37,275 nt of DNA from a virus. Lineage: Duplodnaviria; Caudoviricetes. The position numbers and the translations under genes are program-made. Where the stretch lies: positions 1-37,275 of the IMG/VR virus record IMGVR_UViG_3300030372_003141; one strand, written 5' to 3'. The notes under the pieces were generated by a model. That model searched no databases, was not told where the DNA came from, and was given only the letters and a program-made list of their open reading frames with translations. This document shows, piece after piece, positions 6,709 to 37,211 of this stretch (its first letter is position 1; each line of letters begins with the position of its first letter).

Positions 6709-6720
6709 GAACAATATACA

Positions 6721-12972: not shown

Positions 12973-12974
12973 TA

Positions 12975-15856: not shown

Positions 15857-15857
15857 A

Positions 15858-16530: not shown

Positions 16531-16544
16531 GAGTTTTTTAACAT

Positions 16545-17327
16545 ATGAGTAGAGATAAAGGCGTAACTAAACGTTACATCGTTACTCCCGACAAGCATGC
16601 TCCTTTACACGATAAGAAAGCAATTTCAGTTGTAAAGCAAGCAATAGAAATCATCAAGCCAGATGGTTATATAGATTTGGGAGATTTTGGAGAGTTTGGC
16701 AGTGTATCTCATTGGCAGTGGAAAAGAAAGAAAAAACCACCTTTAGAGTATATTATGCCAAGAGTAGATAGAGATATTGCTGCTTGCAATAAGCTTCTTG
16801 ACAGTATTGATGAAAGTCTTGATAAAGCTGGTACAAAAATAAAGCATTTTTGCCAAGGAAATCATGATGAATGGCTAGACATGTTCGTTCAAGAACATCC
16901 ATACTTGCCAGATTATACTTTTAAAAGAGCGTTAGATTTATCTGGAAGAGGTTATAAATATCATGATGCTGGACAGTATTTTAAAATAGGCAAGTTATAT
17001 TACTATCATGGTCATCATTTTGGTGGGCAATATCATGCAGCTAATCATTTAAGAAAATTAGGTTGCAATATAATGTATGGCCATCATCATAGTATGCAAC
17101 AAGACTCAGTGACTCATATAGATGGTCCTAAAAGTGCTTGGAGCATTGGATGTTTAAAAGATATGTCTCATGAGAATAATGAATGGCTTAGGGGCAGAAA
17201 ACATAAATGGGCTCATGGCTTTGCTGTAGTTGATTATTTTACTGGTGGTAAGTTTACAGTACATATAATACAGATTATAAATGGAAAAGCATCGTTATGG
17301 GGAGAAATAATAGATGGAAATAAGTAA
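16545..17327 (+). CDS. Calcineurin-like metallophosphoesterase
   Basis: All five motifs present: DKH, LGDFGE, GNHD, HGH and GHHH; SD AGGAG. Confidence 0.9.
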   Translation: MSRDKGVTKRYIVTPDKHAPLHDKKAISVVKQAIEIIKPDGYIDLGDFGEFGSVSHWQWKRKKKPPLEYIMPRVDRDIAACNKLLDSIDESLDKAGTKIKHFCQGNHDEWLDMFVQEHPYLPDYTFKRALDLSGRGYKYHDAGQYFKIGKLYYYHGHHFGGQYHAANHLRKLGCNIMYGHHHSMQQDSVTHIDGPKSAWSIGCLKDMSHENNEWLRGRKHKWAHGFAVVDYFTGGKFTVHIIQIINGKASLWGEIIDGNK

Positions 17328-17590
17328 TGGATTTATTTGCAATAATAGAAAAGTTTGGGATACCAGTCGCTGTAGCATGTGCTTTTGGCTTCTTTATATG
17401 GAAGCAAAACAAGTATATACAGGATGATTTAACTAAGGATATACATGGTAAATTTAATAGGTTAGAAGCTATCATTATTAAGCTAATAGACCAACAAAAG
17501 AAAATGCAAATAGAGATGAGAGGAATAGTGAAATCTTATCAAACATTAGTAGAAATAATAACTAAATTATTAAAGAAAGAGGGCAAGTAA
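17327..17590 (+). CDS. Single-pass membrane protein with coiled-coil tail, holin-like
   Basis: N-terminal hydrophobic helix FGIPVAVACAFGFFIW, then a coiled coil; TAATG overlaps at both ends. Confidence 0.6.
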   Translation: MDLFAIIEKFGIPVAVACAFGFFIWKQNKYIQDDLTKDIHGKFNRLEAIIIKLIDQQKKMQIEMRGIVKSYQTLVEIITKLLKKEGK

Positions 17591-18840
17591 TGTCATATAA
17601 TAGAACTTTAAGAGAGTTAGGGATAGATGAAGAGGAAGAATTATTAGATTTCTTGCCTAATACTGGGTTTTCAACAGAAGACGGTACATTTCGTAATGAA
17701 ATGGACTATTTTACTCGAATGGGTATGGGCGCAGATATGAATGTTCCAGGTACGAACCTTGGAGAGGTTAATACTAGTTGGTATCCAGGAAAGTATTTTG
17801 GTAATATGCTTGGTGGAATTAGCGACAGGATTGAAAGTCATGGACAATCTTGGTATCCAGGCAAATATGCACAAGGTGCAGCTCGTGGAATTACAGGTTT
17901 ACTTGGCAAAGCTATGGATGGTATTGACAGGCTTATTAATGCTGATTTTATGCAAAAAGGAGCAGGTGCTGGTGGTAATTGGTTTCCTAGCGCTGCAGAA
18001 TTAAAAGAGTTTAAAAATCGAAATAAACCGCAAACATTAAGAGAAACGGGTTCAAATTTAGTACCTAATAATATTCCAGATGCTACTCCAATAAATGCAG
18101 AACCTTCGATTGGTTCATTAGTTGATAATTCGTTAAGAAATATGGACCCTGGCTTTTATAATGAATTTGACACTAGTTATGACCCTGCTAATCCTCAAAA
18201 TCTTTATCCAGATGAGCAATCTAGCTATGACCCAACAAACCCTATGAATATGTATCCAGATGAATTAAAAGGATTAGATTCTGTAGATGAGGCATTAAGC
18301 AATCAAAAATATCAACAACAGGTATCGCAAGGAGGAGAAGCGCTTGCTAATAGCATGTTGTCTAAAGCTTATCAAAATGAAGGAGTTTCTGAAGAAGTTG
18401 GCGACAGATATCCATCTTCTGAAGAAGTTGGCGACAGGTATCCAGTTAGCGAGGAAATGACATTTCCATATACAGACCCTGATACTGGACAAATGTACTT
18501 TACACCAGAAGATATGGACCCTTCTTATAATCCTGGCCCATCAATGGGCGCTTATTCAAATAGCGCATTAACAACTCCATCTCCTGGTATTCATGGTCCT
18601 TCAGCTGGATGGCCAACTGGAAATCCAATGCCTTCTGCAAATATTCCTGGTATTGGGCAAATATCCAATCAAGGTATACCTTTTCCTCAAGCTGGTCCTA
18701 ATGCAGGTACGTTCCAGACTCCATTTGGAAATGTACCTCCTATAGCAATGCCTTCAGGTCCTAGTACTGAAGAATTGGCACAACAAGCAGCATTTTTAAC
18801 TGATATATTTAATAAAAAACGAAAAGAAGATATTTATTAA
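17590..18840 (+). CDS. Low-complexity Pro/Gly/Asn-rich protein with internal repeats, possibly an internal virion protein
   Basis: Repeats SWYPGKY x2, SYDPxNPxNxYPDE x2 and SEEVGDRYP x2; proline-rich C-terminal third. Confidence 0.6.
   Translation: MSYNRTLRELGIDEEEELLDFLPNTGFSTEDGTFRNEMDYFTRMGMGADMNVPGTNLGEVNTSWYPGKYFGNMLGGISDRIESHGQSWYPGKYAQGAARGITGLLGKAMDGIDRLINADFMQKGAGAGGNWFPSAAELKEFKNRNKPQTLRETGSNLVPNNIPDATPINAEPSIGSLVDNSLRNMDPGFYNEFDTSYDPANPQNLYPDEQSSYDPTNPMNMYPDELKGLDSVDEALSNQKYQQQVSQGGEALANSMLSKAYQNEGVSEEVGDRYPSSEEVGDRYPVSEEMTFPYTDPDTGQMYFTPEDMDPSYNPGPSMGAYSNSALTTPSPGIHGPSAGWPTGNPMPSANIPGIGQISNQGIPFPQAGPNAGTFQTPFGNVPPIAMPSGPSTEELAQQAAFLTDIFNKKRKEDIY
18387..18444 (+). repeat. 30-bp-period tandem duplication within the CDS
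   Basis: TTCTGAAGAAGTTGGCGACAGATATCCA (18387-18414) and TTCTGAAGAAGTTGGCGACAGGTATCCA (18417-18444), one mismatch. Confidence 0.9.
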
Positions 18841-21713: not shown

Positions 21714-22228
21714 TAGAGAAAAATCATATTAGATTAAAAAATCGAAAAGGTCAAAAAGTGCTAGAGGTCTGGCAAAATGGTCGTTGGCATTCAATTGTAT
21801 TAGAAAATAGACAAAAATCAATTGTTAAAGAAAGGCCTAGACAGAAAGCTTTACAGGTGAAAAAATTACGTCAAGATAGATGGAGTAAACCTGAATCAAG
21901 AGACGGTATGTCAGACCCGGGAGATGCAACTGTATTGAGTTTGAAGACTAGAGTGTCTTATTTAAGAACTCTTGATGCAGGCACTAGGCAATGGTTTTCT
22001 TTACCTATGGGTACTGAAGGTCAAGAAAAGATTTTGATTGTAAGGGAGATTGGTTTATCGCCTACTTTGCCTAGAATTAAAATAACAACAAAACAAGGCG
22101 ATGAAGTATATAGAGGTGAGAAAAAAGGACAAGTATTACATTTAATTTGTGATGGGACATGTTGGTATCCAGTAACGTCAATTGACTCTACTGATGCAAA
22201 TGGCCCTGGTAAATGGAATGTAGAATAA
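21710..22228 (+). CDS. Hypothetical tail-associated protein
   Basis: ATGA overlap with the nozzle gene; C-terminal LPxGxxGQxK...LICDGTCW motif reminiscent of fibre/appendage tip domains. Confidence 0.5.
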   Translation: MIEKNHIRLKNRKGQKVLEVWQNGRWHSIVLENRQKSIVKERPRQKALQVKKLRQDRWSKPESRDGMSDPGDATVLSLKTRVSYLRTLDAGTRQWFSLPMGTEGQEKILIVREIGLSPTLPRIKITTKQGDEVYRGEKKGQVLHLICDGTCWYPVTSIDSTDANGPGKWNVE

Positions 22229-22242
22229 GAACGGAGAATATT

Positions 22243-23016
22243 ATGTCAAGAGCAAGAATGATGCTAGATAGAAGATTGCGAGAAGAGCAAATTGCACGAA
22301 AAAAGAGATTAGGTGACCAAGCAATAGCTGATGAAGGTTCTCGTGTAATGACAAGTAAATCAGAGCAAGGTAAAACTTCAGGTTGGTTAGGTGCAGGGCT
22401 TGGTTTATTAACTCTAGTTGCTTCTGGTGGAACATTGACTCCTTTAGCTTTAGCTTTAGCTGGTGGAGGAGGAGCTTTAGGAGGCAGTTTAATAGGAGGA
22501 GCTGTAAATAAAGCTAAAATGGATTCTGATAGAATGCAATTTGGAAATACTACAAATATTACACCTATTGAAGATAAGATTAGAAAAAAAGTATTAGGTA
22601 GTGATATGAAAAGAGCTTTTCAAATTGGTTCTACTTTATATGGAGGTGCTAATCTAGCTCAAAATGCTGGGGGAATAATGAATGCTTTAAAAGGAGGACC
22701 AGCTCCTGCAACAGGAAAAGCTACAAGTATTTTAGATATAACTAAAGGTATTAATCAGGGGACTATGACTCCAAGTAATATAAAATCCAGCTTAACTAAT
22801 GTAGTTGGAAGCAGTGGTAAAGGTGGGGTTAATTTAGCTCAAAATAGCGGTAGATTAGCTGGTGCTGCAAAAACTTCCAGCGGATTTCAGCCGTTTAAAA
22901 CATTAAGTAACTTGTCAAATAAAAACTTAGAATGGCAAAAGTGGAGACGAGCTAAAAGATTAGGTAAGTTTGTTGGCGATTTTGATGTATGGCAAGCAAT
23001 AAATTCAGTAAAATAA
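22243..23016 (+). CDS. Putative ejection (internal virion) protein
   Basis: Start re-assigned to ATG 22243 (SD GGAG); Gly/Ala-rich hydrophobic hairpin GWLGAGLGLLTLVASGGTLTPLALALAGGGGALGGSLIGG typical of membrane-inserting ejection proteins. Confidence 0.6.
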   Translation: MSRARMMLDRRLREEQIARKKRLGDQAIADEGSRVMTSKSEQGKTSGWLGAGLGLLTLVASGGTLTPLALALAGGGGALGGSLIGGAVNKAKMDSDRMQFGNTTNITPIEDKIRKKVLGSDMKRAFQIGSTLYGGANLAQNAGGIMNALKGGPAPATGKATSILDITKGINQGTMTPSNIKSSLTNVVGSSGKGGVNLAQNSGRLAGAAKTSSGFQPFKTLSNLSNKNLEWQKWRRAKRLGKFVGDFDVWQAINSVK

Positions 23017-23034
23017 GATTTAAGGGGATAAAAA

Positions 23035-24654
23035 ATGGGATATTTTAGTAAATCAGGCAAATGGCAATATTCAAATCCAGCATCGCCAAAATTAAGCACT
23101 TGGGCTCCAGGCACTGATGCCTATAGATGGGTTCATTCATTGGGTGGTATAGACGATGTTAAAGGTCGAGATATAGGATGGGCTGGCGGCAATGTTCTGG
23201 AGAAAGAAACATATAGATTTGGGGAACCAGGAAGCAATCTAATGGACGGTAGGCAAACTGTTGGTTCTATTTACAAAACGAGAGACCGATGGAAGTCGGG
23301 GCAGGGTAGCGGAGGCGATGAATTTATTGGTTTTACTCCTGCAGGTGATAGAATGTTAGGAAATGTTCAATCAGGATGGGATTCTAATGTTAAAGGAGAC
23401 CCTGCAGCTTGGAAAGCGGCGAGAGCAAGAGCAAACCAATTTATGGACAGCGGTGATTTTGCAAGCTACCTTGGACCATCTTTAACTGGTGGAGCTACTA
23501 AAGATGTTGAAGATTTTGTTACTAGAAAAAATAGGCTAGAAGGCATGAAAGGTAGTGTTTGGGACCCTGAAAACAAAACAGGTGGTCAACAAACTTTTAA
23601 AGGAGACAGGTATGGTACATCAAGCAGCGACTTAGGTTATGATAGTTTTAGCACAACAGGAAGAGGTGGAGCTGGTTTTAGATTATCCCCTTTACATACT
23701 GCTGGACAAGCTGGGTTAAAAACATTATTAGCATCAGAATTTGGAAAATCAAATCCTGCAATGTCAAATATTAAACCATTTAGTACATCAGATGAATACG
23801 GAAACATACAGCAAAGAGATGTGGATAGAGCAACTTCATTTGGCAATTTATATGCTAAAGATAATACTGCTAGCGGTTGGGAATCTACTGGCAATCAATT
23901 GAAGGGTTTAATTGACTATCTTAAACCTCAAGCAGACGGAACAAGCAATGTGTTTGACCTTGAGTATCCCGGTTCTGATGACCCTGACACTCCTTGGGAT
24001 GATACGAAAATGGTTGATTGGGATACAACATTAGGCGGCGAAACTTTTAAAGATAAATATACAGATGCTATTCAGAACTACTATTTAGGTAAAGGTAGAG
24101 AAGTTGGAAGTGACCCTTCTAGATGGGGTAGTGTATTGCAGAATTATCTTGATACTGGCTTGCCTGATTTTGAAGGGGTAATGACTAAGCAGGATGAATT
24201 AAAAGGCATGTATCAAAATATAGCAGGTATTGAAAGTGATATTGGTGATGAACAAGCATCTCAACAACAAGCAGATGTCGAAACGAGAGGTGGGTTATTA
24301 GACCAATTTAAAGCAGCAGAACAGCGTAAATATCTTGGTGGATTTGCAGGAATGGGAGAAAGCCCTGCTCTTGCAATGGAAAAAGGCAACTTATTAAGCG
24401 ATGCTGGATTAGGATTATTAGGAACTAAAAACAGAGTAGGTGCTTTACGAGGAGATATAGATACAGAACTTCAAAATATTAGCACAGCTGAAACTGTAAA
24501 TCAAAACTTTTTAGATAATATATATGGTAGCTGGTCTGATTTAGAAACTGATATTAATGAACAAAGTGCAGGTTTTGGTGAATGGAGTAAGCCAGAAGGA
24601 GATTGGCTTACTGATTTATGGAGTGACGTTCAATCTGGATTACCAAAAGGATAG
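23035..24654 (+). CDS. Putative ejection (internal virion) protein
   Basis: Gly-rich N-terminal part and acidic helical C-terminal part; located in the ejection block; SD AAGGGG. Confidence 0.5.
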   Translation: MGYFSKSGKWQYSNPASPKLSTWAPGTDAYRWVHSLGGIDDVKGRDIGWAGGNVLEKETYRFGEPGSNLMDGRQTVGSIYKTRDRWKSGQGSGGDEFIGFTPAGDRMLGNVQSGWDSNVKGDPAAWKAARARANQFMDSGDFASYLGPSLTGGATKDVEDFVTRKNRLEGMKGSVWDPENKTGGQQTFKGDRYGTSSSDLGYDSFSTTGRGGAGFRLSPLHTAGQAGLKTLLASEFGKSNPAMSNIKPFSTSDEYGNIQQRDVDRATSFGNLYAKDNTASGWESTGNQLKGLIDYLKPQADGTSNVFDLEYPGSDDPDTPWDDTKMVDWDTTLGGETFKDKYTDAIQNYYLGKGREVGSDPSRWGSVLQNYLDTGLPDFEGVMTKQDELKGMYQNIAGIESDIGDEQASQQQADVETRGGLLDQFKAAEQRKYLGGFAGMGESPALAMEKGNLLSDAGLGLLGTKNRVGALRGDIDTELQNISTAETVNQNFLDNIYGSWSDLETDINEQSAGFGEWSKPEGDWLTDLWSDVQSGLPKG

Positions 24655-24662
24655 GAGAAAAA

Positions 24663-26210
24663 ATGGCAAATATAATTATAAAAGATGATAGTGATGGCAT
24701 ATTAGATGAAGCTTTAGGTGTGTTGCCTGGTATTTTAGGCCAGGCTAATCAATTGGTTAATTCTAATAAACAAGTTGAACTTGCTAAACAAGCTCAAGCA
24801 AATGCTGATAAGAAAATGGATATGCAAGTTGCTGAATATGAGTATAATGTAAAAACTCGTAAAGAGCAAGAAGATATGAAAGACTTGTTATGGAATACGA
24901 CTAATATAACCCACCCATCTAATGCTATGGTAGCATCAGGTAAAGGGCCTGAATATGATTGGAATCAAGCATTTGGCTCTGAACTTCCTGATTATTTTAC
25001 AGCTCGACAATCTTATATTGAAGGCGCTAGAGCTAAAGGAATTACGCCAAATATGCAGATGTTTGACCAAGACTGGTCATCTAATCAGCAAGCATACTTT
25101 AGCAAGGAATTACAGTCATTTAACTCGCTATATGACCATTACAAAGCTAAAGGGTGGGATAATAATCAGATTTATAAAGAATTAAAAATTAATCATAATG
25201 CAGATAAGATGAGGTCTAAATATAATAAAGTATTTGGCATGCTACCTATAGAGCAACGACCGACATTGCAATATCCATTGCTTGAATCTGTTAGTGGTAA
25301 AGGTAGAGTAGAAGGGTTAATAGATTCTGCTGAGAAATTAGTATGGGATGAACAGGCAGGTGAAATGACTTGGCCAGCAATGATTGGAACTGGTCTAATG
25401 GCAATACCCGCAGCTATGTTAGCTAAATATACAGGAGGCAAGATACTTTCTGTTCCTAAAGCTCTTCGAGGTTATTTTAAGAATAAAAATGGCGTTGCAG
25501 AACTTAGTGAAAAAGGTGTAAAATTAGCAAACGAACAAATGGGCAAAACAAGCTCAAAGTTAGTTAAAGAAACTGCAGGAACAGCTCTTAAAGGTAAAAT
25601 AGGTCCTGAACCTGCAGCGTTTAAACCTACTAAAGAGATGCTTAGGGTAAACAGTAAACTAGATGATATATTAGCGAAAGTGCGAGGTGTAGTAAAGGAT
25701 AAAGGATTACTTAGCCCAGAAAAGATGGATTGGGACCAATGGTGGAAGACATCAGCGGAATCAGCAAAAAACCCTAAAGTAGCCGAAGCTTTAAGAAAGA
25801 AAATTGCTCAATTTAATCCAGCCGAAATGGCTAAAGTAGGAACTAAAGCTAAAGAAAGTTTTGGAAATAGATGGATGCGACGAGGAGCTGCATTTTTACC
25901 ATTTGCTGCAGGAATGGAACTTGGTGGTAAAGGCGTTGAAATGATGGGCGGTGGAGAATTGTCTCAAACTGCTGGAGGCCTTGCTGGAGGTGCAGGGGTT
26001 ACAAGTTTATTAAAAAACATTAACAGCCCAAAAGTAAAACGAGCTATTTTAAAAGTAGGAGGAAAAAGCTTGTATAAAAAAATGCTATTAGCAACAGGAG
26101 CTACACTTGCCCCAGAAGGATTTTCTACTATGGCTGGAGTAGCGGGATTAGGTTTAATGGCAAAAGATATTGCTCAAATACTATCGATTTTAAATAGCCC
26201 AGAAGAATAA
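24663..26210 (+). CDS. Putative ejection (internal virion) protein
   Basis: SD AGGAG; helical, with several Gly/Ala-rich hydrophobic segments; directly precedes the giant gene. Confidence 0.55.
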   Translation: MANIIIKDDSDGILDEALGVLPGILGQANQLVNSNKQVELAKQAQANADKKMDMQVAEYEYNVKTRKEQEDMKDLLWNTTNITHPSNAMVASGKGPEYDWNQAFGSELPDYFTARQSYIEGARAKGITPNMQMFDQDWSSNQQAYFSKELQSFNSLYDHYKAKGWDNNQIYKELKINHNADKMRSKYNKVFGMLPIEQRPTLQYPLLESVSGKGRVEGLIDSAEKLVWDEQAGEMTWPAMIGTGLMAIPAAMLAKYTGGKILSVPKALRGYFKNKNGVAELSEKGVKLANEQMGKTSSKLVKETAGTALKGKIGPEPAAFKPTKEMLRVNSKLDDILAKVRGVVKDKGLLSPEKMDWDQWWKTSAESAKNPKVAEALRKKIAQFNPAEMAKVGTKAKESFGNRWMRRGAAFLPFAAGMELGGKGVEMMGGGELSQTAGGLAGGAGVTSLLKNINSPKVKRAILKVGGKSLYKKMLLATGATLAPEGFSTMAGVAGLGLMAKDIAQILSILNSPEE

Positions 26211-26218: not shown

Positions 26219-29200
26219 ATGCCACAAGGTTTCGAACCATTATGGGATGAAGAACAGACTAGAAAAATATTAGACCAATATAAAGGACAAGGTCATTTAT
26301 TAAAGCCTAATGATAAGATTAATCTAGAAAATCATGCCGCACATCATAACTTACCATTTTATCCAGGTGATTTTTCAATTATGGATGCCGTTAAACAGGC
26401 AGGTATTGGATTCTGGGAAGGATTAACAACGTTTAGTCCTTCTGATGAACGCCCTGACAATGTTTATGAAGGCATAGCAAGAAGTGTAGGTCATCTTGCA
26501 GGATTCGCTCCTGGAATGATGGCTAAACCATTAAAACTACTTGGCGCTCGTGGATTAGCTAATAGAGTTGCTAGTTGGCGTTCTGCTCCTTTATATATAG
26601 CAGATAAAGCTACAGAAGCGATTAAAAAACGAACTAAAGGTATAGGTTTAACAGGAAGAACTGAAGCCCTTAAAGTTGCAAAAGATTTCCATTTAGGAGA
26701 AAAAGCCGCTCATATTACTGAAGGAGCATTTCATTTAGGAGTTGCTAGTGCCGTTAGTGCATGGCAAGGTGGTGTAGATGGAATGATAGAATCAGGTAAG
26801 CATGGCGCTGTATTTGGGGGTGTTTTTAGAGGTTTAGGTAATTTGATACCTGGAACTAAAGCTCATGAAACAGCTGCTAAAGCAGTTGCTGGTTCTTTAT
26901 TTCAAGGGTTACCTGCTACAATGCGAAATGCAACCACAGAAGAACAAGTATACGAATACTTGATGGGTGCTTACTTTGGTAGTAATGAGATATCATGGTC
27001 TAAAGCTAAAGCTATGAAGTTTATGGGCGAGCATGATAAGAAAATGAGAGCAGATGCGGAATATATGTCAATCTCTAGAGGAGACCCAGAATTTCATCCA
27101 GAGTTTGCCAAACTTCCAGAACCAGTTAAAGGTGAAGCAAAAACTATTGCTAAAGAAAGATATAAAGACCCAGCTACACAATTAGGTATGGCATTTAAAT
27201 TAGCTGAATTAGTTGGTCAACAAGATAAAGTTATTCCTGATATTGAAGGAAAAGAAACAAAAATTGAATATGTTGATGGCGATGCTAAGATTGTTATTAA
27301 CAAAAAAGATATACCAAGGGCAAAAGGTTTTAACCTCGGAGGAGGGAATACTGGAGCTGAAGCAGAATTTGCAAGAAGTGCAGATAGAAAAGGCAGAGGT
27401 ACTATTCACTTTACAACCAGAGGTGCTGATAAAAAGATTAAATCACCTGGAGTTGTACGAAGATTAAAAATACAAGAGCTAGAAGATGCAAATAAAGCTG
27501 TTGAAGTAGCTAACCAAACTCTTCAAAGAGACTTGTCAAAAGTCAATGATGATACTTTAAATCTAATTCGTGCTAATAAATATAAAGTAGATAATGGTGA
27601 CGCTGTTTATATTGTTGGTGAAATAGATTCTAGCAATAGTGCTAATTATAGATATGAAACAAAGTTTCAAAAAAATAAAGATACTGGCAAAAAAGAAAAA
27701 GTTCGAGTCTCAAATTTTATAGGCAATAAAGATAAAGTTTTAAAAGGTAATAGTGCATGGGTTGCACAAATGGCAATTGATGCAGGTAAACCTGTACACG
27801 TATTTGACCAAGTTAAAAAAGGTTGGTACTCTTTTAGTCAAGGCGCTAATAGATTTGTGCGTATAAAAGAGCCACCTAGACCACCTGCTAGATTTGTTGG
27901 AACAGGTACTCGAAAATTAAACATAGTTGGAAAAAAGGCCATAGACCGCCTTTTTGATGCCAATTGGGGTGATAGTCCATCTTATAACAAGAAAGTGTCT
28001 GAAACAGCTAAAATAACGCCTCAAATCGAAGCAAGAGAGCAAAGATTAGAGAATATTGACCTTAGACAAAGGAAATTAGAAGAAGAATTAGCTGAAATTA
28101 CTTCTCAAGTAGAATTGGCAAAATCTTTAAATAGGTCTGAAGAACATATTTCTGAAATCGAAGCTCCTAAAAAACTAATTTTAAAAGAACATGATGCTTT
28201 AACTATTGAAGCTAATCAGCTACGTAATATTGATGTTACGCTTGGCGGTAAAGAGAAGCCTATTGTTGATAGGGAAGATAATATTTCTAGTGCTGATGAG
28301 ATAAATGCTAGATTAGATAATGATTTTGAAGGCGCTTCTGAGCTTAGAATAGGTAAGAAAGCTCATCAATTTGTAAAAAGCCATTTATCTAATTTATGGT
28401 CAGGTAAAGCTACCACTACTGATGAAACTATTACATCTATTGACTTAACAAGAAGACTAGATAAGATTATGGAAAGCAAAGATAAGTATGGTGTTCCAAA
28501 ATTTATTCAAAGAGGTAGTAAAGAAAATAGGTCTGAGGCTTTAGCTAAAGAAATTGAAGTAGATATAAACAAGCCTGTTAAAGATGGGGGTTTAGGCGTT
28601 AAAGATTTTACATTAACTCCAGAAGCTAAAGGAGAGCTTAGGCAGTGGATTCAAACCCAAAATACTGGTAAACTAGTCGTTCATCTACAATCTAATGGTA
28701 AGACTGTAAGTAGGATGAATGATGATACTAATCCATTTTCTCAAGCTGGTACTAGAAAGCATCAAAGAGAGCCTAAAAAACGTATTGAATTTGCTTTTGA
28801 AGAGGCTGGTGGAAAGTATGAGCTTAATGAAAATGGCGAGCAGATAAATCCAACATATATAGTTTTAGACCATGTTACCGTTAGAAATGATAAAGGTCGA
28901 CGAGTTGATATGGACTTGTCAAGATTTCGAGGTAATTATTTATTAAGAGAAAATAATTTTAATGCAGAAGTTGCAGATAAGAAATATAGAGAATTTATGA
29001 GCAATGCCATGGAAAGCATGGCTAAAGATGGTTATTATGCTTTTGGTGGACGTGCTGATGGCGACAAAGTACATTGGGTAAGATTTCATCCAGAAGCTAA
29101 TACTTTCAAAATATCCGACATTATATCCGAGGGTTTAAAGGTAGATAAGAATTTTAAATCTTATTATGAAGCTGCTAAGACTAATTTTAGAGCTCAATAT

Positions 29201-32200
29201 GGCCGTGGTCATAAGTTTGACAAGATGTATACTTCTAATATACTGTATGACTTAACAATGAATGGTTTTGATATTAACACTGCCAATTTATCAAAAATGC
29301 TTGGAGAAGGTTTTATTAAAGATTCTAAAGCATTTAATAAGCGTTCTCAAATATGGTTTTCTACAGGTTATGAAGGTGATGGCACTTTTATTAGGAATCA
29401 AGTCGTAGATGGTAAAAAGATTAAGTTAAATGATAATGGAAATTACGAATATGTTATTGTAAGGGACTTGCCTAAAGAGCTTGACAACATGAGCAGAAAA
29501 GAATTAGCTGAATATCAAAAGATGATAGATACAGTAAATAATCATAATCCAGAGCATGTTGATGGGGCTATTATAGTTAGAGATGATATTTTACAAGCTA
29601 TTAGTAGAGACTTTGGAGTAATTGAATCTGTTGGTCAAAATAAATCTTTTATTGTATCGCCAAATTCAGAGCATGGTGCTTTGCTAGGTAAGTTTATGTT
29701 CCATAGTGCAGGAAAAGCTATGACTGAGCATATGAAGAAAAATGGAAATCTTCATATGATTATGCAAGAAAGTGCTGTTAAACAAACAGGTACACGAAAA
29801 ATGGGTGATTATGATATCACAAAAGATGGATTAGTTGTTGATGCTGATAGATACGAATTGACACCTGAGCATATTTTAGGTAGCTATGGTGTTTATGGAA
29901 GCAAGCATATGATAGAAAGCCAGCGTTTACCAAAGCAAGTATTAGGTAATCTTGTCGCAACATTAAGAACTCCTGTTCAGCAAAAAGTTATAGATGAAAT
30001 GTTTAATGATATTATTAATACTCGATTTGAAGGTGACCCAATTTGGAATAAAGAGGTTGATACTTATTTAGATAGCGTTGAAAATGGTGGACTTTCTACT
30101 AAAGAATTGAAAGTTATTGAATCAAAGATTGAAAATAATCTAGAAAATATTGGAATACCTACGCTAATTAAGGCAATGAAATCTGACCATGCATTAAATT
30201 TAACAGAAGTTATTTATAATAAAATATTAAAGATTGAAAAGAATAATGCATATCAAGAATTGTTAGATGGCGAAATTACTGAAGAGCAATACAACCAAGT
30301 TAATGCTGAAATAAATGAATCAACAAATACAGTAGGTAAAATTACAAAGATAGCTAATGAATGGGTGCAAGAGCAAAGGTCAATGGGCAAAGATATGTCA
30401 GCTTCTGCTATTTATATGCATAAATTTGTTAGAGACTTTAGAGTTAAAGCAGTTCAAAATTTTATAGTTAATTCAGCTACTAAGCCTAAGATGGACAATT
30501 CTGCTGTTGGTTTTATTCGACCATACGATAAAGCATTACAATATGACATTGATAATGTTAGTGACTTGTTAAAAAAGAACAATGTAGAGGGCATTAATCA
30601 TAAAGATGATATTTTCTTTTTAGATGATGCTCATAGAAAAATAGTTATCAATACCAATTTAGCAACTAAAGGTTTAGAGAGAATATCCCTTGGCAGATTA
30701 TGGGATAAGTATCAGAATGGTGAATTTTCTGGAACATCTAAGCTAGTTGTAGAAGATATCTTTAGAGCGGCTACAGTACGTGTTCCTATGGATTCAGTTT
30801 CAGGGGTTCAGGTATTGAAATTTGGAGGATTTACAGGTCGTAAAGGTCATGGTATATTAATGCATAGTAGAGCTATGAGAGCTGAAGGTGGAGCTGACCT
30901 TGATGGAGATAAATCTTTTGTATTCTTTGGTGGAAAAGGTGGATGGAAAAAGTCTTGGAAAGATGCATTTGATAGCAATAAAAACGAGCATTATTCTCCA
31001 GATGGAAAAAAAGTAAGCGATAATAAAGCTGCGCTTATACCTGGAACAAATACTACTTATGAAAGTGTTTTAACACAACAGTTTAATAAAAAAACTAAAG
31101 AAAAATTTGATTCAAAAGCTTATCAATATGCACCTGGTGAAAGGTTAAGAATATCAGAAGCTGCTGTTGATGGGAGAAACCTACTTGGTCCTGCAGTTAT
31201 ACAAAAACAAGTAATGACTGCTGCATACAACTCAATTCTCGCTGGTGGAGGGGAGGATGTGCTTCAAATTGAAAGATATGAAAATAATAAAAAAGTATTT
31301 TATGAAGTCAAGATTGAAGCAAAAACAGGTGATGTTCAACAAGAGCATCAAAGAAAACTTGGAAGAGCGCAATTAGGTTTAGCATCTGACCCTTTAGATG
31401 TTTTAGGGTTAAAAAGTAAAAACGAATGGTTTCAAATGATGTGGGATGCTCATTTTGGAATTAAAGAAGTCAAACAAAGAAAATCAGGCGTCAAATACTG
31501 GACAAAGCTAAAAAAAGATGCTCTTAATAAGTTAATTAGCGAAGATATGTTTACAGGTAATCAATTAAAAAGTGGTTTGTTAAAAGATTATTACGACATT
31601 AATCAAGCTTATTGGGGTAGAAATTGGGCTGAAAACAGAAAATATTCAATGGGAGAGATTAATGAGTTAGGCTCTGCTGTTCATAATATTGGTCAAAATC
31701 CTGTTCGATTAAACAATGTACTAGCTAAGACAGGTAAAATGTTAAATGGTCTAGATTGGTCTGATTCTATTTTTGGACGAATTGATAAGCGAGCTATTCG
31801 AGATATGTATCAGCTTAAAATTAAAGAATTGCCTGGGTTAGATTGGCTAAAAAATCTATTAGGAAGACCAACTTTAAAAACTGAAATGGGTGCTTATATA
31901 GATAACACTTTGGAGTTAGGTTTATGGAAAGAAGGTAGGGTTTGGGATAAATCAGGTAAATTGATTGGTGGTATTGAGGCTGTCGCTAAAGATACTAATT
32001 TATTTAGAAAAGCTGTTAAAGGGACTTTATTTGCTAAAAATAAAGATTTAATGAAAGAAGCAATTAGAAGCCAAGATGTCCGTAAGCGTGTTTTAAGACA
32101 AATTCGCGATTATGCTGAAGATTTTATTGTTAACGACGTAACTGATTGGACTACTATTCAAAATACTAGTCGAATTGCTAAGGAAATGATAGATACGAAT

Positions 32201-35200
32201 GATAAAGGTCATAGATTAGCGAAAACAACTGAAGAAGGTATAGCTGCTATACATGAAAAAGTCGAACAATTAAAGAAAAATTCTTATTTAATGGCTAGAG
32301 ATAGAAAGAATTTAGAAAAATATTTAAATGTAACTAAAGAAACATATTCAAAAGAAACAGTAGATTTAAATAATAAAATACTTGACGTTTATAATGAAAT
32401 AGTTCCTGAAGCTAAAAAACCTAAGACTAAAGAGAAAAAGCTTGTACAAGATGAATTTAGTGCCGAAATGGACCAGGCTTTAATTGATTCAGAAATTAAC
32501 GCATTTAAAGATAACTTAACTGAAAATGGTAAGCAGATGTTTGAGCAATTGATGCTAGGCTCTTTAAGTAGAGGGAATATGGCTAAAATTGACAAGGTTA
32601 TTGCATCTGTAGATAAGTTTGACAAAACTACAATGGATTTAATACACAATTTAAGAACACAAGCTTCTAGAACGCAAACTAGCAAACTGGGCTTTAATAG
32701 TAATGCTATATCAGAACAGGGCTTAAAAGAGCATTTAGGGACTTATTTAGGGCTTTATGAGCAAGTATGGACACCTCCTACAAATAAAGAGGTAAAATCT
32801 ACCATTGATAATATTCATAAATCATTAGATAATGTTAGCAATAAAGAAAAGACTAATATGCCTGATGACCCATTAAACGATTTTATCCAAGAGTCTCTTT
32901 TGGAATCTGGATATCAAGGTTTAAAGAAATCTAAATTAGATGATAAGTCACGAAGTGTAGTTTCTGAAATTGCAACGTTGTTAAAATCTTGGGGTAATAA
33001 CAAATTAAATGAAGATTTAAATTTAATCACTCGAGGTAATCCGTTTTTGCAAAAAGATTTAAATACTATGAATTATCAAGACTTTGTAGTGTTTAGAAAT
33101 TATTTAAGAGAAGTAAAACGTGGCAATACTATACAGAGATGGCTTAAAAAATGGGGTGGTAAAAAGCATGAAGGTGCCACTTTATTAGGATTAAGGCATC
33201 ATTTACAAATTCCTGAAACAGTAGGAAGGGAATTGATGGTTGACGATTTACAGTTTATGGAGCAAAATGGATATTTTACTACTAGGTATGGTGGTCGTCA
33301 AGAAGGGCGTATTTTAAAGCCTACAAATTATATAGACATCATGAATAATTGGGCAAGTTTATTAGTAGATAAATCTACAGGTCATGCTGATGGGTTGATT
33401 AAGAAGTTTCATGATACTATGCAATTTCAAAGTGGATTAGAAGATGCTGAATCATTATGGCAAGTTGCTATTAGGACAAGAGAGTTAGGGCTGGAAAATT
33501 CATTATTAAATAATCCTAATTCAGGTAGAAAAGCTGAAACTGATACTATTGTTAAAAAGATTAGAGCATTGTATAATGAAACTTTAAAAGAAACTGATTA
33601 TGAAGCTTCATTAAAAAATAAAGAATACTTGTTAAATATTGATGGTCAAAGAAAAAAGATGACTGGCGAAGAAATCGTTAAGCGTATTGATAAAGAAGTT
33701 GGAAAAACTTTAGATGATATGCATAAGTTTATTGTTGGCGACCCTGGTGTTCTTGAAGATTATATTTATGATTATTGGGATAAAGATACAAGATTGTCTC
33801 CTAAAATTGATTACAAGAAGTTTATTAGACATATGACTGAGCATATGACTGGAGGAGAAAGTCCTTGGAAAGGGGTTGCTCCTAAAGATGTACCTACGTT
33901 TTTTGGTATAGATAATTTACGTGCAGTAGCTAGGTCAATGCAATTAGACTTGATGCCTACAAAAACTAAATCGCAAAAAGATGCTAGATTAAAGATTGCT
34001 TTACAACCAGTATTTGGCACAAGAAAAATTGAAGAGGGTTATTTTCCACATATGTTTTTTGATAAGAAAATAGCTAAAGAATTAACTGATGCTGCGATGG
34101 AGAAAATTATTAAAACTCCTAATAGTGAAATGGATGAAGCTACTAAAAAAGTTGAATTAAAAAAACTACAATATAGATATCGTTCTTTAGAAGGAGATTG
34201 GAACTTTAAAGACATGGAAGAATATGACATGTTTAACGACGTAATTAAGGATATATCTGAAGGAAAGTCGATAAGTGAAAATCAAATTAAATGGTTTAAT
34301 GCTAATGAACGTGCTGGTTCAATGCATTCAAGGACAAGTTATACAGGGGGATGGAGCATTGACCCTGTAGTTGTAGAGGCATATATGCGTTCACTTACCA
34401 ATACTTATTATAGGCAGCTTACTCAAATGTTTGGAAGAGATGTTGTTGATAGAATGGGTAAAGAAATGCCTAAGAAATGGGGCTTAGACCAAACTAAAGC
34501 ATGGCAAACTTGGATGCAGATGTATATTAATGATGCCATTGGTAACCCTTCGATTGTACCAGAGTCTGTTTATGAAAATCCTAATATGAAATTAAAATGG
34601 TCTCCATATGCTTGGTGGGCTGATAATAGAGTGCGTGATAAAATCAATAAAGTGTCTAATAAATTAGGCCTTGGTAACAAGAATATCCCAGAAAATCTAC
34701 GTGGCATAGATATCGATACTGTTAGATACTGGTCTAATTTAGAAGCGCAATATGAAATGGCATCATTATTAGCTCACCCAAAAAGTACTGTAATGAATTT
34801 ATTTGGTGGTAGCATGAATACATTTGCTTCTGCTGGAGTTGGCAATTGGGTTAAGGGTAAAAGCATATCTTATCTTAAAAAAATCAATCCAGCTTTTAAT
34901 TCTAAGCAAGCAGTAACTGACTTTACTATCAAAATGGGAGTTGTTCCTGAATATATTTTATACGAAATGGGTTTGCAAAAAGAATGGCAAACTGTTAAGG
35001 GTAGAAACATTATAGAAGAAATGAAAAATGTATTAGCTCGAGACCCTGAAATGACAACTGAAAGCTTAGTAGAAGTGGCTAGTAAATATGGTAAAGGTTG
35101 GAAAGATAAAGCAATGAATTTTGCTACTAAATTTATGACATTACCTGAAACTGCTTTACGTAGAGACGCATTTATGGCTCATTATGTTCAAGCTTGGGAA

Positions 35201-35908
35201 AAATATGGTGGAGCATTTAAAGAATATGACCATCCATTCTTAATTGAAATGGCTAAAAAAGGTGTAAAAGCTACTCAGTTTTTATATAATGCTCCAAATA
35301 GACCAGCTTTTGCTAGAACTGCATTAGGTAAAGTATTTGCAAGATTCCAAATGTATGCATGGAACTCTGTTAAGTTACGTAATGATATTAGAAGAGATGC
35401 TAAAATAGCAGGATATAAACCAGGTACTCCAGAATTTGAGCGATATAAGCGTTTTTGGATGGCAGATATGTTTATGCTTGGTATGGCTAATGTATTTGAT
35501 TACTCATTATTTGATACTAACTTACCTCAACCATATGGCTGGTATAAAGATACAGCTGAATGGATATTTGGAGATGAAGAAACTAGAGATAAAGCCTTCT
35601 TTGGCGCTTATCCAGAGCCAATTGCACCATTGCAAATGATTACTCCTCCTTCTTTTAGGTTAGTTGGTCCAATTATGAATGGTTTTATAAATGATGATTG
35701 GCAACGTATGTCTAAATATCATATATGGAATGCATTTCCATTTGGTAGAATGGGAAGAGATTTATTTGGAGAATATAATATTATAGATAATCCATCTAGA
35801 ATACCTGAAAAACTATTTGGTATTCCATTGGGACAAATGCAGAGAAAGCGTACTGAAATGAATCGTAGATGGGAAGAAGAAGAAGAAAGGAGATTACTTG
35901 ACCTCTAA
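26219..35908 (+). CDS. Giant (3229 aa) multidomain protein: putative virion-packaged two-barrel DNA-dependent RNA polymerase
   Basis: Catalytic-loop motif GGADLDGDK (DLDGD at aa 1560-1564, nt 30896-30910) preceded by RVP (R1521); second-barrel candidates HVDGAIIVR (D1115), K1142 and K1158; located in the ejection-protein block. Confidence 0.85.
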   Translation: MPQGFEPLWDEEQTRKILDQYKGQGHLLKPNDKINLENHAAHHNLPFYPGDFSIMDAVKQAGIGFWEGLTTFSPSDERPDNVYEGIARSVGHLAGFAPGMMAKPLKLLGARGLANRVASWRSAPLYIADKATEAIKKRTKGIGLTGRTEALKVAKDFHLGEKAAHITEGAFHLGVASAVSAWQGGVDGMIESGKHGAVFGGVFRGLGNLIPGTKAHETAAKAVAGSLFQGLPATMRNATTEEQVYEYLMGAYFGSNEISWSKAKAMKFMGEHDKKMRADAEYMSISRGDPEFHPEFAKLPEPVKGEAKTIAKERYKDPATQLGMAFKLAELVGQQDKVIPDIEGKETKIEYVDGDAKIVINKKDIPRAKGFNLGGGNTGAEAEFARSADRKGRGTIHFTTRGADKKIKSPGVVRRLKIQELEDANKAVEVANQTLQRDLSKVNDDTLNLIRANKYKVDNGDAVYIVGEIDSSNSANYRYETKFQKNKDTGKKEKVRVSNFIGNKDKVLKGNSAWVAQMAIDAGKPVHVFDQVKKGWYSFSQGANRFVRIKEPPRPPARFVGTGTRKLNIVGKKAIDRLFDANWGDSPSYNKKVSETAKITPQIEAREQRLENIDLRQRKLEEELAEITSQVELAKSLNRSEEHISEIEAPKKLILKEHDALTIEANQLRNIDVTLGGKEKPIVDREDNISSADEINARLDNDFEGASELRIGKKAHQFVKSHLSNLWSGKATTTDETITSIDLTRRLDKIMESKDKYGVPKFIQRGSKENRSEALAKEIEVDINKPVKDGGLGVKDFTLTPEAKGELRQWIQTQNTGKLVVHLQSNGKTVSRMNDDTNPFSQAGTRKHQREPKKRIEFAFEEAGGKYELNENGEQINPTYIVLDHVTVRNDKGRRVDMDLSRFRGNYLLRENNFNAEVADKKYREFMSNAMESMAKDGYYAFGGRADGDKVHWVRFHPEANTFKISDIISEGLKVDKNFKSYYEAAKTNFRAQYGRGHKFDKMYTSNILYDLTMNGFDINTANLSKMLGEGFIKDSKAFNKRSQIWFSTGYEGDGTFIRNQVVDGKKIKLNDNGNYEYVIVRDLPKELDNMSRKELAEYQKMIDTVNNHNPEHVDGAIIVRDDILQAISRDFGVIESVGQNKSFIVSPNSEHGALLGKFMFHSAGKAMTEHMKKNGNLHMIMQESAVKQTGTRKMGDYDITKDGLVVDADRYELTPEHILGSYGVYGSKHMIESQRLPKQVLGNLVATLRTPVQQKVIDEMFNDIINTRFEGDPIWNKEVDTYLDSVENGGLSTKELKVIESKIENNLENIGIPTLIKAMKSDHALNLTEVIYNKILKIEKNNAYQELLDGEITEEQYNQVNAEINESTNTVGKITKIANEWVQEQRSMGKDMSASAIYMHKFVRDFRVKAVQNFIVNSATKPKMDNSAVGFIRPYDKALQYDIDNVSDLLKKNNVEGINHKDDIFFLDDAHRKIVINTNLATKGLERISLGRLWDKYQNGEFSGTSKLVVEDIFRAATVRVPMDSVSGVQVLKFGGFTGRKGHGILMHSRAMRAEGGADLDGDKSFVFFGGKGGWKKSWKDAFDSNKNEHYSPDGKKVSDNKAALIPGTNTTYESVLTQQFNKKTKEKFDSKAYQYAPGERLRISEAAVDGRNLLGPAVIQKQVMTAAYNSILAGGGEDVLQIERYENNKKVFYEVKIEAKTGDVQQEHQRKLGRAQLGLASDPLDVLGLKSKNEWFQMMWDAHFGIKEVKQRKSGVKYWTKLKKDALNKLISEDMFTGNQLKSGLLKDYYDINQAYWGRNWAENRKYSMGEINELGSAVHNIGQNPVRLNNVLAKTGKMLNGLDWSDSIFGRIDKRAIRDMYQLKIKELPGLDWLKNLLGRPTLKTEMGAYIDNTLELGLWKEGRVWDKSGKLIGGIEAVAKDTNLFRKAVKGTLFAKNKDLMKEAIRSQDVRKRVLRQIRDYAEDFIVNDVTDWTTIQNTSRIAKEMIDTNDKGHRLAKTTEEGIAAIHEKVEQLKKNSYLMARDRKNLEKYLNVTKETYSKETVDLNNKILDVYNEIVPEAKKPKTKEKKLVQDEFSAEMDQALIDSEINAFKDNLTENGKQMFEQLMLGSLSRGNMAKIDKVIASVDKFDKTTMDLIHNLRTQASRTQTSKLGFNSNAISEQGLKEHLGTYLGLYEQVWTPPTNKEVKSTIDNIHKSLDNVSNKEKTNMPDDPLNDFIQESLLESGYQGLKKSKLDDKSRSVVSEIATLLKSWGNNKLNEDLNLITRGNPFLQKDLNTMNYQDFVVFRNYLREVKRGNTIQRWLKKWGGKKHEGATLLGLRHHLQIPETVGRELMVDDLQFMEQNGYFTTRYGGRQEGRILKPTNYIDIMNNWASLLVDKSTGHADGLIKKFHDTMQFQSGLEDAESLWQVAIRTRELGLENSLLNNPNSGRKAETDTIVKKIRALYNETLKETDYEASLKNKEYLLNIDGQRKKMTGEEIVKRIDKEVGKTLDDMHKFIVGDPGVLEDYIYDYWDKDTRLSPKIDYKKFIRHMTEHMTGGESPWKGVAPKDVPTFFGIDNLRAVARSMQLDLMPTKTKSQKDARLKIALQPVFGTRKIEEGYFPHMFFDKKIAKELTDAAMEKIIKTPNSEMDEATKKVELKKLQYRYRSLEGDWNFKDMEEYDMFNDVIKDISEGKSISENQIKWFNANERAGSMHSRTSYTGGWSIDPVVVEAYMRSLTNTYYRQLTQMFGRDVVDRMGKEMPKKWGLDQTKAWQTWMQMYINDAIGNPSIVPESVYENPNMKLKWSPYAWWADNRVRDKINKVSNKLGLGNKNIPENLRGIDIDTVRYWSNLEAQYEMASLLAHPKSTVMNLFGGSMNTFASAGVGNWVKGKSISYLKKINPAFNSKQAVTDFTIKMGVVPEYILYEMGLQKEWQTVKGRNIIEEMKNVLARDPEMTTESLVEVASKYGKGWKDKAMNFATKFMTLPETALRRDAFMAHYVQAWEKYGGAFKEYDHPFLIEMAKKGVKATQFLYNAPNRPAFARTALGKVFARFQMYAWNSVKLRNDIRRDAKIAGYKPGTPEFERYKRFWMADMFMLGMANVFDYSLFDTNLPQPYGWYKDTAEWIFGDEETRDKAFFGAYPEPIAPLQMITPPSFRLVGPIMNGFINDDWQRMSKYHIWNAFPFGRMGRDLFGEYNIIDNPSRIPEKLFGIPLGQMQRKRTEMNRRWEEEEERRLLDL

Positions 35909-37211
35909 TGATAATGAACAAATTAATTTAGATGTTAACGATGATATTGGTGATATATTAAAAAATACCGACAGATTTGTTGACGGAGATATTAGCGGTG
36001 GTAGTCAATTATTAAGTAATTCAGCTACATTAATAGGCGGGGCATCGTTATTAGGTGCTACAGCACATTATGGTAAGCGTGCTATTGCAAGAGGTATTGA
36101 TACCTATGGTTTTGGAGCAAATGTTACAGGGTCATATCAAGGAGATTCTAAAATTGCTCAATATACTAATAATTTATTGCAAGCAGGTGGTGCTAAAAGA
36201 CGAAATATGCCTATAGAATTTATGAAAACTTTAATGGCTAAAGGTAACCCCGCTGAATTAAGCGCTATGGAAAATTCCATTGCTATGCTTGATGAACATA
36301 TGAGTAAATTAAAAAGCCAAGGTTTACGTATTCCTAAAAAAATGAAAGAATATTATTTAAATTTGCAGGCTATGAGACCTGAGAGAAATATGGCTCAAGC
36401 TATTTTACAAACTAGCTTTAACCAACCTGTTAGCTTTGAACATGGCGGTAAATTTGTAAAAAATGCTATGCCTCAAGTAGATGAAGATATTGGTAAAGCA
36501 TTAGCTAATAAGGGATTTGACACTAATAAACCTTTTACTGTATATGATGTTACTGATGATAAGTTTATGAATAAGAAATTACGTATGGCATCAACTAATG
36601 ACCCTAGGTTAAGAATAATTAACCAAGCTTTAAAAAATAATCAAGTTGATGATGCAAAAATGTTTGCTAAGAACGGAACTATTAAATATGGGAAAGAATT
36701 AATACATACTGGTAAGCCTATCAATTTAGTTAAAGAAGGTGATGGGTATGTTGCTAAATTTGTGCCTCAATATATGCAAAAAGGAGGCAAATTAGCATCT
36801 GTTAAAGAATATGTTGTTGGAGGGCATACTCAACGTGTTCATTTTGGCAAATATGAAGGATTTAAAGGTTTTCATAAAACATATACAGATATGTTTGATA
36901 TTACTAGTTACGCTTCTGCAGGAGAAACTGCTGATAATGTAATTACTAAAGGAAGAATTGCAATAGCAGGAGAGCAAGGTAGAAAAGCTGGAGTACATCA
37001 ACCAGTTGTTACAGTCAGTAGCTATAAACATAGAGCACCTGGGGGAGGAAGAACTCCTGGTGTAGTAGATAAAGTTAAACGTAAAAGTAGAAAATTCGTT
37101 GAAGCTTCCGCTAAAACATTATATGACGACCCTTCTAAGTTGAAAAAATTAAAAGCTAAAGATTTATTAAGAATTGCAAAAATCTTAGTTACTAAAGGCA
37201 AGTCTTTTTAA
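35898..37211 (+). CDS. Hypothetical basic protein (437 aa), possibly an ejected partner of the giant protein
   Basis: TTG start with SD AAAGGAG, overlapping the end of the giant gene; N-terminal Gly/Ala hydrophobic segment. Confidence 0.65.
   Translation: MTSNDNEQINLDVNDDIGDILKNTDRFVDGDISGGSQLLSNSATLIGGASLLGATAHYGKRAIARGIDTYGFGANVTGSYQGDSKIAQYTNNLLQAGGAKRRNMPIEFMKTLMAKGNPAELSAMENSIAMLDEHMSKLKSQGLRIPKKMKEYYLNLQAMRPERNMAQAILQTSFNQPVSFEHGGKFVKNAMPQVDEDIGKALANKGFDTNKPFTVYDVTDDKFMNKKLRMASTNDPRLRIINQALKNNQVDDAKMFAKNGTIKYGKELIHTGKPINLVKEGDGYVAKFVPQYMQKGGKLASVKEYVVGGHTQRVHFGKYEGFKGFHKTYTDMFDITSYASAGETADNVITKGRIAIAGEQGRKAGVHQPVVTVSSYKHRAPGGGRTPGVVDKVKRKSRKFVEASAKTLYDDPSKLKKLKAKDLLRIAKILVTKGKSF

Follow-up and report, generated by a model that had tools for sequence, protein, structure and literature searches.

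The stretch analyzed here (the window) is an entire virus record, IMGVR_UViG_3300030372_003141 (37,275 bases), and carries a block of structural genes on the plus strand. Within it lies a giant gene whose product of 3229 amino acids (aa), termed P0001, was described in the initial annotation as a single-chain two-barrel RNA polymerase from the ejection block of a podovirus that does not look crAss-like. Amino-acid positions below refer to P0001, and the coordinates of the features are collected in Table 1. The open reading frame (ORF) and the sequence signs behind that description were all found where they had been placed. RVPMDS begins at aa 1521, GGADLDGDKSFVFF, which holds D1560, D1562 and D1564, begins at aa 1557, and HVDGAIIVR (with D1115) begins at aa 1113, with K1142 and K1158 also present. 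DLDGD is the sole DxDGD sequence of the protein. The gap between R1521 and D1560, given as 39 residues, measured 39, the same as between R1322 and D1361 in gp66 of phi14:2, a crAss-like Cellulophaga phage, and D1115, said to lie about 400 residues upstream, is located 406 residues N-terminal of R1521 and 445 residues N-terminal of D1560. Searches of Pfam, PHROGs and PDB sequences with P0001 (Pfam also with pieces of it) gave no match, and neither did PDB searches with the family profiles A2 and A3 or tblastn searches of 50,697 GenBank phage records with the core and C-terminal part (for the core, none at E ≤ 0.001).

The AlphaFold2 model of aa 800–1900 has a mean predicted local distance difference test score (pLDDT) of 90.8 and a predicted template modeling score (pTM) of 0.88. 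In a Foldseek comparison with the PDB, phi14:2 gp66 (6vr4) was the single chain at E ≤ 0.001 (E 2.1e-10), and the other 49 rows listed were RNA polymerase entries. A search of 48,161 chains with a method other than Foldseek placed QDE-1 at the top (Z 13.7, 532 residues aligned, root-mean-square deviation (rmsd) 4.7), together with maize RDR2 (Z 13.1), gp66 (Z 12.1, 731 aligned, rmsd 3.9) and P74 gp62 (Z 11.3), with unrelated rows at Z of about 5–6. A repeat structural comparison gave Z scores of 15.3 for RDR2, 14.1 for QDE-1 and 12.3 for gp66 (794 aligned, rmsd 4.5). Beta-prime-type subunits aligned to the second half of the core model only. The isolated double-psi barrels 7dww and 7dbo aligned to model residues 628–773 (aa 1427–1572), and the single-chain polymerases aligned across aa ∼1068–1224; a weak separate match to 7awt_G (Z 5.3, 102 residues), a NuoG domain which we take to be a double-psi barrel, covers exactly the latter range. 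The model contains one double-psi barrel around D1115 and another around D1560–D1564, as the initial annotation had proposed, and it matches two-barrel polymerases only. Both barrels are predicted to lie on one chain, and all features of the barrels of the two-barrel superfamily (RxP and DxDxD; an acidic residue and lysines) appear to be present. In two-barrel polymerases a bridge helix and a trigger loop come after the catalytic barrel; the core has long helices at ∼1639–1675 and ∼1705–1723 with conserved R1642, R1653 and D1724, and the QDE-1 alignments extend to residue 1186 of that enzyme.

According to a study of QDE-1 (PMC9508822), this enzyme uses R671/Q673, D709, Q736, K743, K767, R962-x-P964 and D1007/D1009/D1011. 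By order and spacing, R1042/Q1044, D1115, K1142, K1158, K1188, R1521-x-P1523 and D1560/D1562/D1564 of P0001 can be paired with this series. The series in the gp66 sequence is D962, K1012, K1027, K1065, R1322 and D1361, of which the first three were chosen by eye and are presumed equivalents. In hhalign comparisons with the gp66 family, R1521 and D1560 paired with R1322 and D1361 (E 0.003, probability 10%), and non-significant segments paired R1042 with gp66 R894 (E 0.23) and K1188 with K1065; a global hhalign alignment of the two families was unsuccessful. Judged from the model and the sequence together, P0001 almost certainly adopts a two-barrel polymerase fold with an intact active site.

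The search with the P0001 core found 287 proteins (120 listed) and, among clusters at 50% identity, 309 clusters with fragments counted (150 listed). A pattern search of IMG/VR found a relative encoded in 202 of 232 matched stretches, and 80 were kept; a locus scan with a single sequence found no relative. Conservation was evaluated in the 190 homologues of at least 2600 aa among the matches listed (phmmer, with residues projected by blastp). Homologues of P0001 span 26–79% identity, and identity per 100-residue block is just 23–59%, despite near-invariance of the catalytic residues. K1158, R1521, P1523, D1560, D1562 and D1564 are each kept in 190/190 sequences, and D1115 and K1142 each in 187/189, so that the aspartates on whose conservation the initial annotation had staked its reading are indeed conserved. 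The 63-row alignment A2 was gathered by patterns that contain the catalytic motif, which is consequently invariant there by construction. R1042, Q1044, D1115, K1142, K1158 and K1188 lie outside these patterns, yet are present in all 63 rows. The fourth position of the motif is glycine in P0001 and 157 of the 190 homologues. In gp66, isoleucine or valine at this position has been tied to a self-inhibited catalytic loop, as stated in the gp66 report (10.1101/2020.03.07.982082), and the glycine suggests that this distorted loop is absent from P0001. The split between glycine and isoleucine/valine is not absolute, because 22 of the 190 homologues, mostly distant members, have isoleucine.

The best rows in BFVD were A0A516LW39 and A0A516LAI4 (entries without names, 26–27% identity); after them came more entries of this sort and proteins of crAss-like phages. 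The nine matches from a profile search of proteins of 430–2202 aa were each a family member or a fragment of one, and eukaryotic RNA-dependent RNA polymerases were absent among the word-sharing candidates that were scored. No description of the family, and no mention of the motifs of P0001 or of the accessions A0A516LW39 and A0A516LAI4, was found in the literature covered, which left out subscription papers. The motif is absent from the text supplements of PMC10770324; the archive of 23 alignments of that paper lay outside this coverage and may include the family.

The core is embedded between long terminal regions. The N-terminal domain (aa 1–300) has no Pfam match and only Atlas matches below 0.9; it may possibly anchor the protein in a membrane or channel. 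It is followed by an optional SLOG insert, which was recognized with a profile of four SLOG-type segments from homologues, three of them with strong Pfam cpYpsA matches; a direct Pfam match is absent from aa ∼365–585 of P0001 itself. The insert occurs in 86 of the 190 homologues. Among 12 homologues picked for length or known Pfam marks, eight carry cpYpsA/SLOG, AlkB-like 2OG-Fe(II), NADAR, DUF7831, DUF1848 or helicase domains. The helical C-terminal region is likely to be an ejectosome or inner-membrane part. Its model had 8vb2_A, a chain of the PhiM1 ejectosome, as top Foldseek row (E 0.021, below significance), and this chain was also the sole long match in the VIA comparison (Z 6.5, 242 aligned, rmsd 6.3; weak). 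The region further matches NCBIfam PLxRFG at aa 2956–3053 (E 1.8e-5, under the cut-off) and an Atlas cluster in which 28% of members are LPD39.

Table 1. Positions of the giant gene, its domains and the other features of the window
Feature	Position	Strand	Basis and remarks
Conserved non-coding element	415..510		34-bp core 470–503; single copy, between divergent early and late blocks
Head module	2114..9079	+	Five genes; Pfam/PHROG matches or position; 36–75% identity in relatives G001–G005
TerS, probable	2114–2890	+	By position
TerL	2997–4490	+	Pfam/PHROG scans
P22-type portal	4501–6708	+	P22_portal
Scaffold, probable	6721–7653	+	By position
SU10-type capsid protein	7682–9079	+	SU10_MCP
Short-tail module	11327..21713	+	SU10_adaptor-like genes 11327–12475 and 14530–15192; fiber-like genes
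Nozzle, probable	18840–21713	+	Size and position only
Three likely ejected proteins	22213..26210	+	267, 539 and 515 aa; 1, 0 and 0 cysteines; upstream of giant gene
Giant gene (P0001)	26219..35908	+	3229 aa, open throughout, cysteine-free; N-terminal domain, SLOG insert, two-barrel core, helical C-terminal region
Gly/Ala-rich N-terminal domain	26219..27118	+	aa 1–300; 42–46% identity to homologues, invariant glycines
cpYpsA-like SLOG insert, optional	27311..27973	+	aa ∼365–585; hhalign E 2e-4, probability 46%
Polymerase core (predicted)	28616..31918	+	aa 800–1900 modeled; aligned to known enzymes at aa ∼802–1855
Duplex-binding helix motif N1040-K-R1042-x-Q1044 (putative)	29336..29362	+	63/63 rows of A2; like QDE-1 R671/Q673 by eye
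Beta-like barrel (predicted)	29420..29890	+	aa ∼1068–1224; D1115, K1142, K1158, K1188; strand pattern of model, conservation
Beta-prime-like barrel (predicted)	30497..30934	+	aa ∼1427–1572; R1521-x-P1523, D1560-L-D-G-D1564 (nt 30896–30910)
Helical C-terminal region	32366..35905	+	aa 2050–3229; model pLDDT 72.9
Cysteine-free 437-aa gene	35898..37211	+	Directly after giant gene; optional in relatives; no family match

The surroundings of the giant gene were examined in the window, in the 80 loci and in five relatives of 47.6–56.4 kb (G001–G005), which are 92–100% complete by CheckV. Ejected phage proteins tend to have no cysteine, and gp50 of phage N4 is not known to contain any. No cysteine is present in P0001 or in 185 of its 190 homologues, and the other genes of the five relatives have 0.6–0.8%. 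Among the three upstream neighbors at the 80 loci, 189 of 202 same-strand ORFs lack cysteine, and the opposite-strand ORFs at these loci contain 1.5% (358 ORFs). Hydrophobic helices were found in the first (267 aa) and third (515 aa) of the upstream proteins of the window. Of the 69 loci that have three or more ORFs downstream, 68 show a block of opposite-strand genes that starts within about one gene. From the cysteine-free block and this gene order we infer that P0001 is packaged in the virion, injected and used for early transcription. In the relatives, an optional cysteine-free ORF of ∼270–910 aa is located downstream of the polymerase gene; the 437-aa product of the window and these counterparts are possibly further ejected proteins, perhaps interchangeable injected effectors.

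In the relatives, the head, tail and ejection genes lie on one strand and converge on an opposite-strand replication block. The early blocks of G001–G005 encode a fused primase-DnaB helicase of ∼590 aa, a Sak4-like ATPase, a probable SSB, an HNH nuclease and an exonuclease. No DNA polymerase was found among 44 scanned proteins of the relatives or the early-block ORFs of at least 400 aa, and each of the five genomes has one polymerase motif, with no second. The early block of G001 includes a cassette (L094:12673–16577) with matching genes in G002–G004. It comprises a small protein of 72–111 aa, a protein of 540–604 aa with an HPF...C motif, presumably E2-like, and two further proteins, one Prok-JAB-like and one of the ThiF/E1 kind. 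ThiF and JAB are present in four of the five relatives. The window lacks the cassette, which has the appearance of a ubiquitin-like conjugation system carried by the phages.

In the structural block, none of the window proteins matched sheath or tape-measure families of Pfam and PHROGs. In place of the SU10_adaptor-like gene at 14530–15192, four of the five relatives (G003, G004 and G005 among them) have it divided between two ORFs. Conserved in most relatives within this block are a metallophosphoesterase (phrog_221, 16545–17327), a CxxC protein (16183–16530) and a small holin-like ORF (17327–17590). A low-complexity ORF of 416 aa without cysteine and without a family match (17590–18840) is located just upstream of the probable nozzle gene. 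At 1243–1743 the window has a lysozyme-like gene (weak Phage_lysozyme2 match), where other relatives have an M15 peptidase. Shortly beyond the capsid gene, intergenic UUCG hairpins (9582–9609; alike in G001–G003) are terminator- or processing-like.

The phage was compared with phi14:2 as a crAss-like control. Head proteins of the window matched SU10_MCP, P22_portal and phrog_1328/156/38, whereas those of phi14:2 matched Crass_capsid and phrog_11589/6547/6681, and a direct phmmer comparison of the window head proteins with phi14:2 gave nothing significant. The crAss_MUZ and CrAss_Ring_1/2 profiles were matched by the phi14:2 controls and by none of 29 window proteins, two of which match SU10_adaptor. 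In TerL, portal and capsid, identity to the closest GenBank phages does not exceed about 31%, and the capsid proteins of the five relatives are 59–71% identical to that of the window. Crassvirales typically have genomes of around 100 kb or larger that encode a DNA polymerase, unlike the 47.6–56.4 kb relatives, in which none was found. Capsid, portal and terminase thus belong to Pfam/PHROG families other than those of phi14:2, so that by profiles the phage appears not to be crAss-like, and the capsid type invoked in support of this is borne out by the SU10_MCP match. The translation signals called rich in Shine–Dalgarno sites are real (12 of 25 window genes, against a background of 0.07–0.08) but only moderate; such sites precede from 14/33 to 23/38 ORFs in the relatives and 1/35 in phi14:2. 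By these sequence comparisons the window belongs to a widespread family of small marine phages, separate from Crassvirales, of which no cultured member was found. Window DNA is present in runs labeled marine metagenome or marine plankton metagenome; apart from a possible source, over half of the sampled words occur in one run and a fraction of 0.25–0.45 in each of eight others. The runs listed include no RNA dataset, which says nothing on expression. Distant members with a high guanine-plus-cytosine (GC) content of 67–74% were also found (L098/G006:C2, 52,893 bases, and L099, L108 (G007)). The bins of two high-GC distant members, entitled Bacteroidota bacterium and uncultured Rhodothermales bacterium, match them in GC content, a weak hint at the host. 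Among 401 genomes of that class the capsid gene was present in the seed genome only, and a GTDB scan returned two bins only.

The non-coding element is common to the window and G001–G005, from which its 34-base pattern was derived. The pattern occurs once each in 69 IMG/VR loci, and once in the window against 0.01 expected. Family proteins are encoded at 68 of the 69 loci, and wherever TerS or TerL is present (63/63 loci), its side and strand relative to the element are the same. Conservation reaches ∼50 bases past the pattern with nearly fixed spacing. A weight matrix of the element gave one match per genome, at the divergent region, with weak ones for G002 and for the G006 contig of high GC; 65 kb of phi14:2 sequence and the G007 fragment were without a match. 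A structured RNA was rejected, with no consensus fold on either strand (41 rows) and no Rfam match. A genome end near the element was likewise rejected: the early side ends within 4 kb in 44 of 69 loci, at 491–543 bases in nine of these, but several are near-duplicates and the contig ends are unclustered. The element is probably a protein-binding DNA site, and a candidate for either the polymerase's early promoter or a packaging site. No repeated or hairpin-type early promoters were found, and the yield of a sigma-70 scan was no more than chance would give (38 sites, 44 expected). Two sigma-70-like sites (531–559 and 715–744), a kind occurring at chance frequency overall, face the late block. 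Positions 545–710 are AT-rich with many short TAGCTA/TATAG-like palindromes, and Logan contigs break there.

We favor, with good though not complete confidence, the reading of P0001 as a packaged and injected two-barrel polymerase for early transcription, an interpretation built on sequence, modeling and analogy. P0001 would be made late by the host polymerase, packed in the head partly unfolded and ejected last through the short tail, after two or three smaller channel proteins. Its terminal regions would hold it at the inner membrane and it would refold in the cytoplasm, where, in an Mg-dependent reaction that perhaps starts at the element at 470–503, it would make RNA on the entering genome and transcribe the opposite-strand early and replication genes. 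The optional inserts (SLOG here; AlkB, NADAR and helicase in relatives) could be co-delivered counter-defense domains. Several points weigh against this interpretation. The case consists of sequence and predicted structure, with no cultured host, and the early/late layout is taken from the relatives because the window is without an early block. Residue equivalences to known polymerases would rest on sequence, spacing and aligned ranges, and the profile-profile likeness to the gp66 family is weak, with two of its three segments non-significant. P0001 has no clear transmembrane segment, and no 19-residue stretch of its N-terminal domain reaches a hydropathy of 1.0; the ejectosome match of the C-terminal region falls within the chance range for helical models. 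A role in packaging or replication would suit the conserved element equally well.

An injected, active polymerase might also have a main job other than early mRNA, either as a genome-pulling motor or in making primers or RNA-templated products, as QDE-1 can. The fusion of the core to a probable ejectosome region (with its weak matches), the fact that QDE-1 and RDR2 score as highly in Z as gp66 does, the lack of a DNA polymerase-sized ORF in the early block of the relatives and the failure to find a repeated early promoter would all fit such a role. We consider it improbable, as the relatives already encode a primase-helicase, genome pulling is compatible with transcription, and the early transcripts of gp66 likewise show no common motif in the gp66 report (10.1101/2020.03.07.982082). 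Still less probable is a non-virion polymerase made during infection for middle or late genes. In its favor, G001–G005 have no second polymerase motif, but the gene is last or second-last of the structural block, inside the cysteine-free group, and the known single-chain non-virion enzymes among the PDB matches are ∼590 aa long and without such terminal regions. That P0001 is a structural ejection protein with an inactive polymerase relic is hardly credible: although conservation of the C-terminal block of aa 3001–3100 (59% identity) is on a par with that of the catalytic block (55%), all catalytic and product-binding positions are near-invariant across relatives of 26–79% identity. As a packaged early polymerase, P0001 could also be part of a wider picture that we regard as doubtful: an abundant undescribed family of 50–56 kb marine podophages with a third design of injected polymerase, in which a QDE-1-like enzyme with a glycine-type, ready active site sits within a T7-gp16-like channel subunit, has one 34-bp promoter of its own, couples transcription to genome pulling and is at least as near to the RNAi polymerases as the crAss enzyme.

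A 2026 paper counts only N4 and phi14:2 among structurally characterized virion polymerases (PMC13434306), and a giant polymerase is regarded as a hallmark of crAss-like phages (PMC10136315). P0001 would place an enzyme of the gp66 kind in an unrelated head and tail module and in genomes half the size, within a family that goes unnoticed in sequence searches of Pfam, PHROGs and the PDB. The family would add a new branch to the proposal of a phage origin of RNAi polymerases. Its natural glycine variant could serve to test the self-inhibition proposed for gp66. For gp66 no promoter was found, and here there is a candidate. Because the core is compact and confidently predicted, its expression and assay should be feasible without a cultured host.

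Among known systems, gp66 (6VR4) is similar to P0001 in its single chain, two barrels, connector and R-to-D spacing of 39, and it gives the longest structural alignment with the P0001 core (731–794 residues). It is also a late gene among cargo genes with the early block on the opposite strand, and some of its relatives have optional SLOG-type inserts. It is reported to be packaged in the virion and to make rifampicin-resistant early transcripts (10.1101/2020.03.07.982082). However, gp66 is only about 10% identical to P0001 and has DFDID instead of DLDGD. Isoleucine or valine occupies motif position 4 in 120/120 of its relatives listed, and the gp66 family mostly has two cysteines where P0001 has none. 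P0001 differs further in its length of 3229 aa with the long helical C-terminal region, in its flanking genes (515 and 437 aa, compared with partners of 1421 and 1797 aa for gp66; the best phmmer score of window proteins against gp65/gp67 was 8.3 bits), and in the unrelated head genes and 47–56 kb genomes of its phages. The gp66 core finds 145 phage records and the P0001 core none at E ≤ 0.001, with no protein identifiers in common among the matches listed. By these sequence comparisons P0001 is neither an orthologue of gp66 nor, by profiles, a crassvirus gene, though it appears gp66-like in its working.

QDE-1 and RDR2 share with P0001 the highest Z scores (RDR2 15.3, QDE-1 14.1), the glycine in the motif and, by eye, the RxQ helix motif and SxxK lysine. 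They differ in aligning over about 530–600 residues, fewer than gp66, and in lying outside the top 50 Foldseek rows; QDE-1 has Q736 and K743 where P0001 has two lysines, and the Pfam RdRP profile matched neither whole P0001 nor its pieces. A closer kinship to QDE-1/RDR2 than to gp66 is not claimed, because Z favors the former while aligned length and Foldseek favor gp66. The gp50 proteins of N4 and Schitoviridae are alike in size (about 3,200–3,500 aa) and in having the enzyme mid-protein; according to PMC13434306, N4 gp50 has terminal domains around a central enzyme, with smaller ejection proteins encoded alongside. The N4 enzyme is T7-like, however, and no match to it occurred among the structure rows listed for P0001. 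The Thermus phage proteins P23-45 gp96 (virion) and gp64/P74 gp62 (non-virion) are single-chain two-barrel enzymes as well (Z 7.8 and 11.3), but P23-45 gp96 is fused to the tape-measure protein of a long-tailed phage and has no clamp, and P23-45 has a second polymerase. T7 gp16 and the PhiM1 tetrameric ejection protein are, like P0001, the product of the largest and last ejection gene, and are linked to its C-terminal region by weak fold, PLxRFG and LPD39 leads, and polyvalent proteins (PMC5512222) are likewise large phage proteins with interchangeable enzyme inserts. Both groups differ from P0001 in having no polymerase of their own, and all matches to them are below significance or curated cut-offs.

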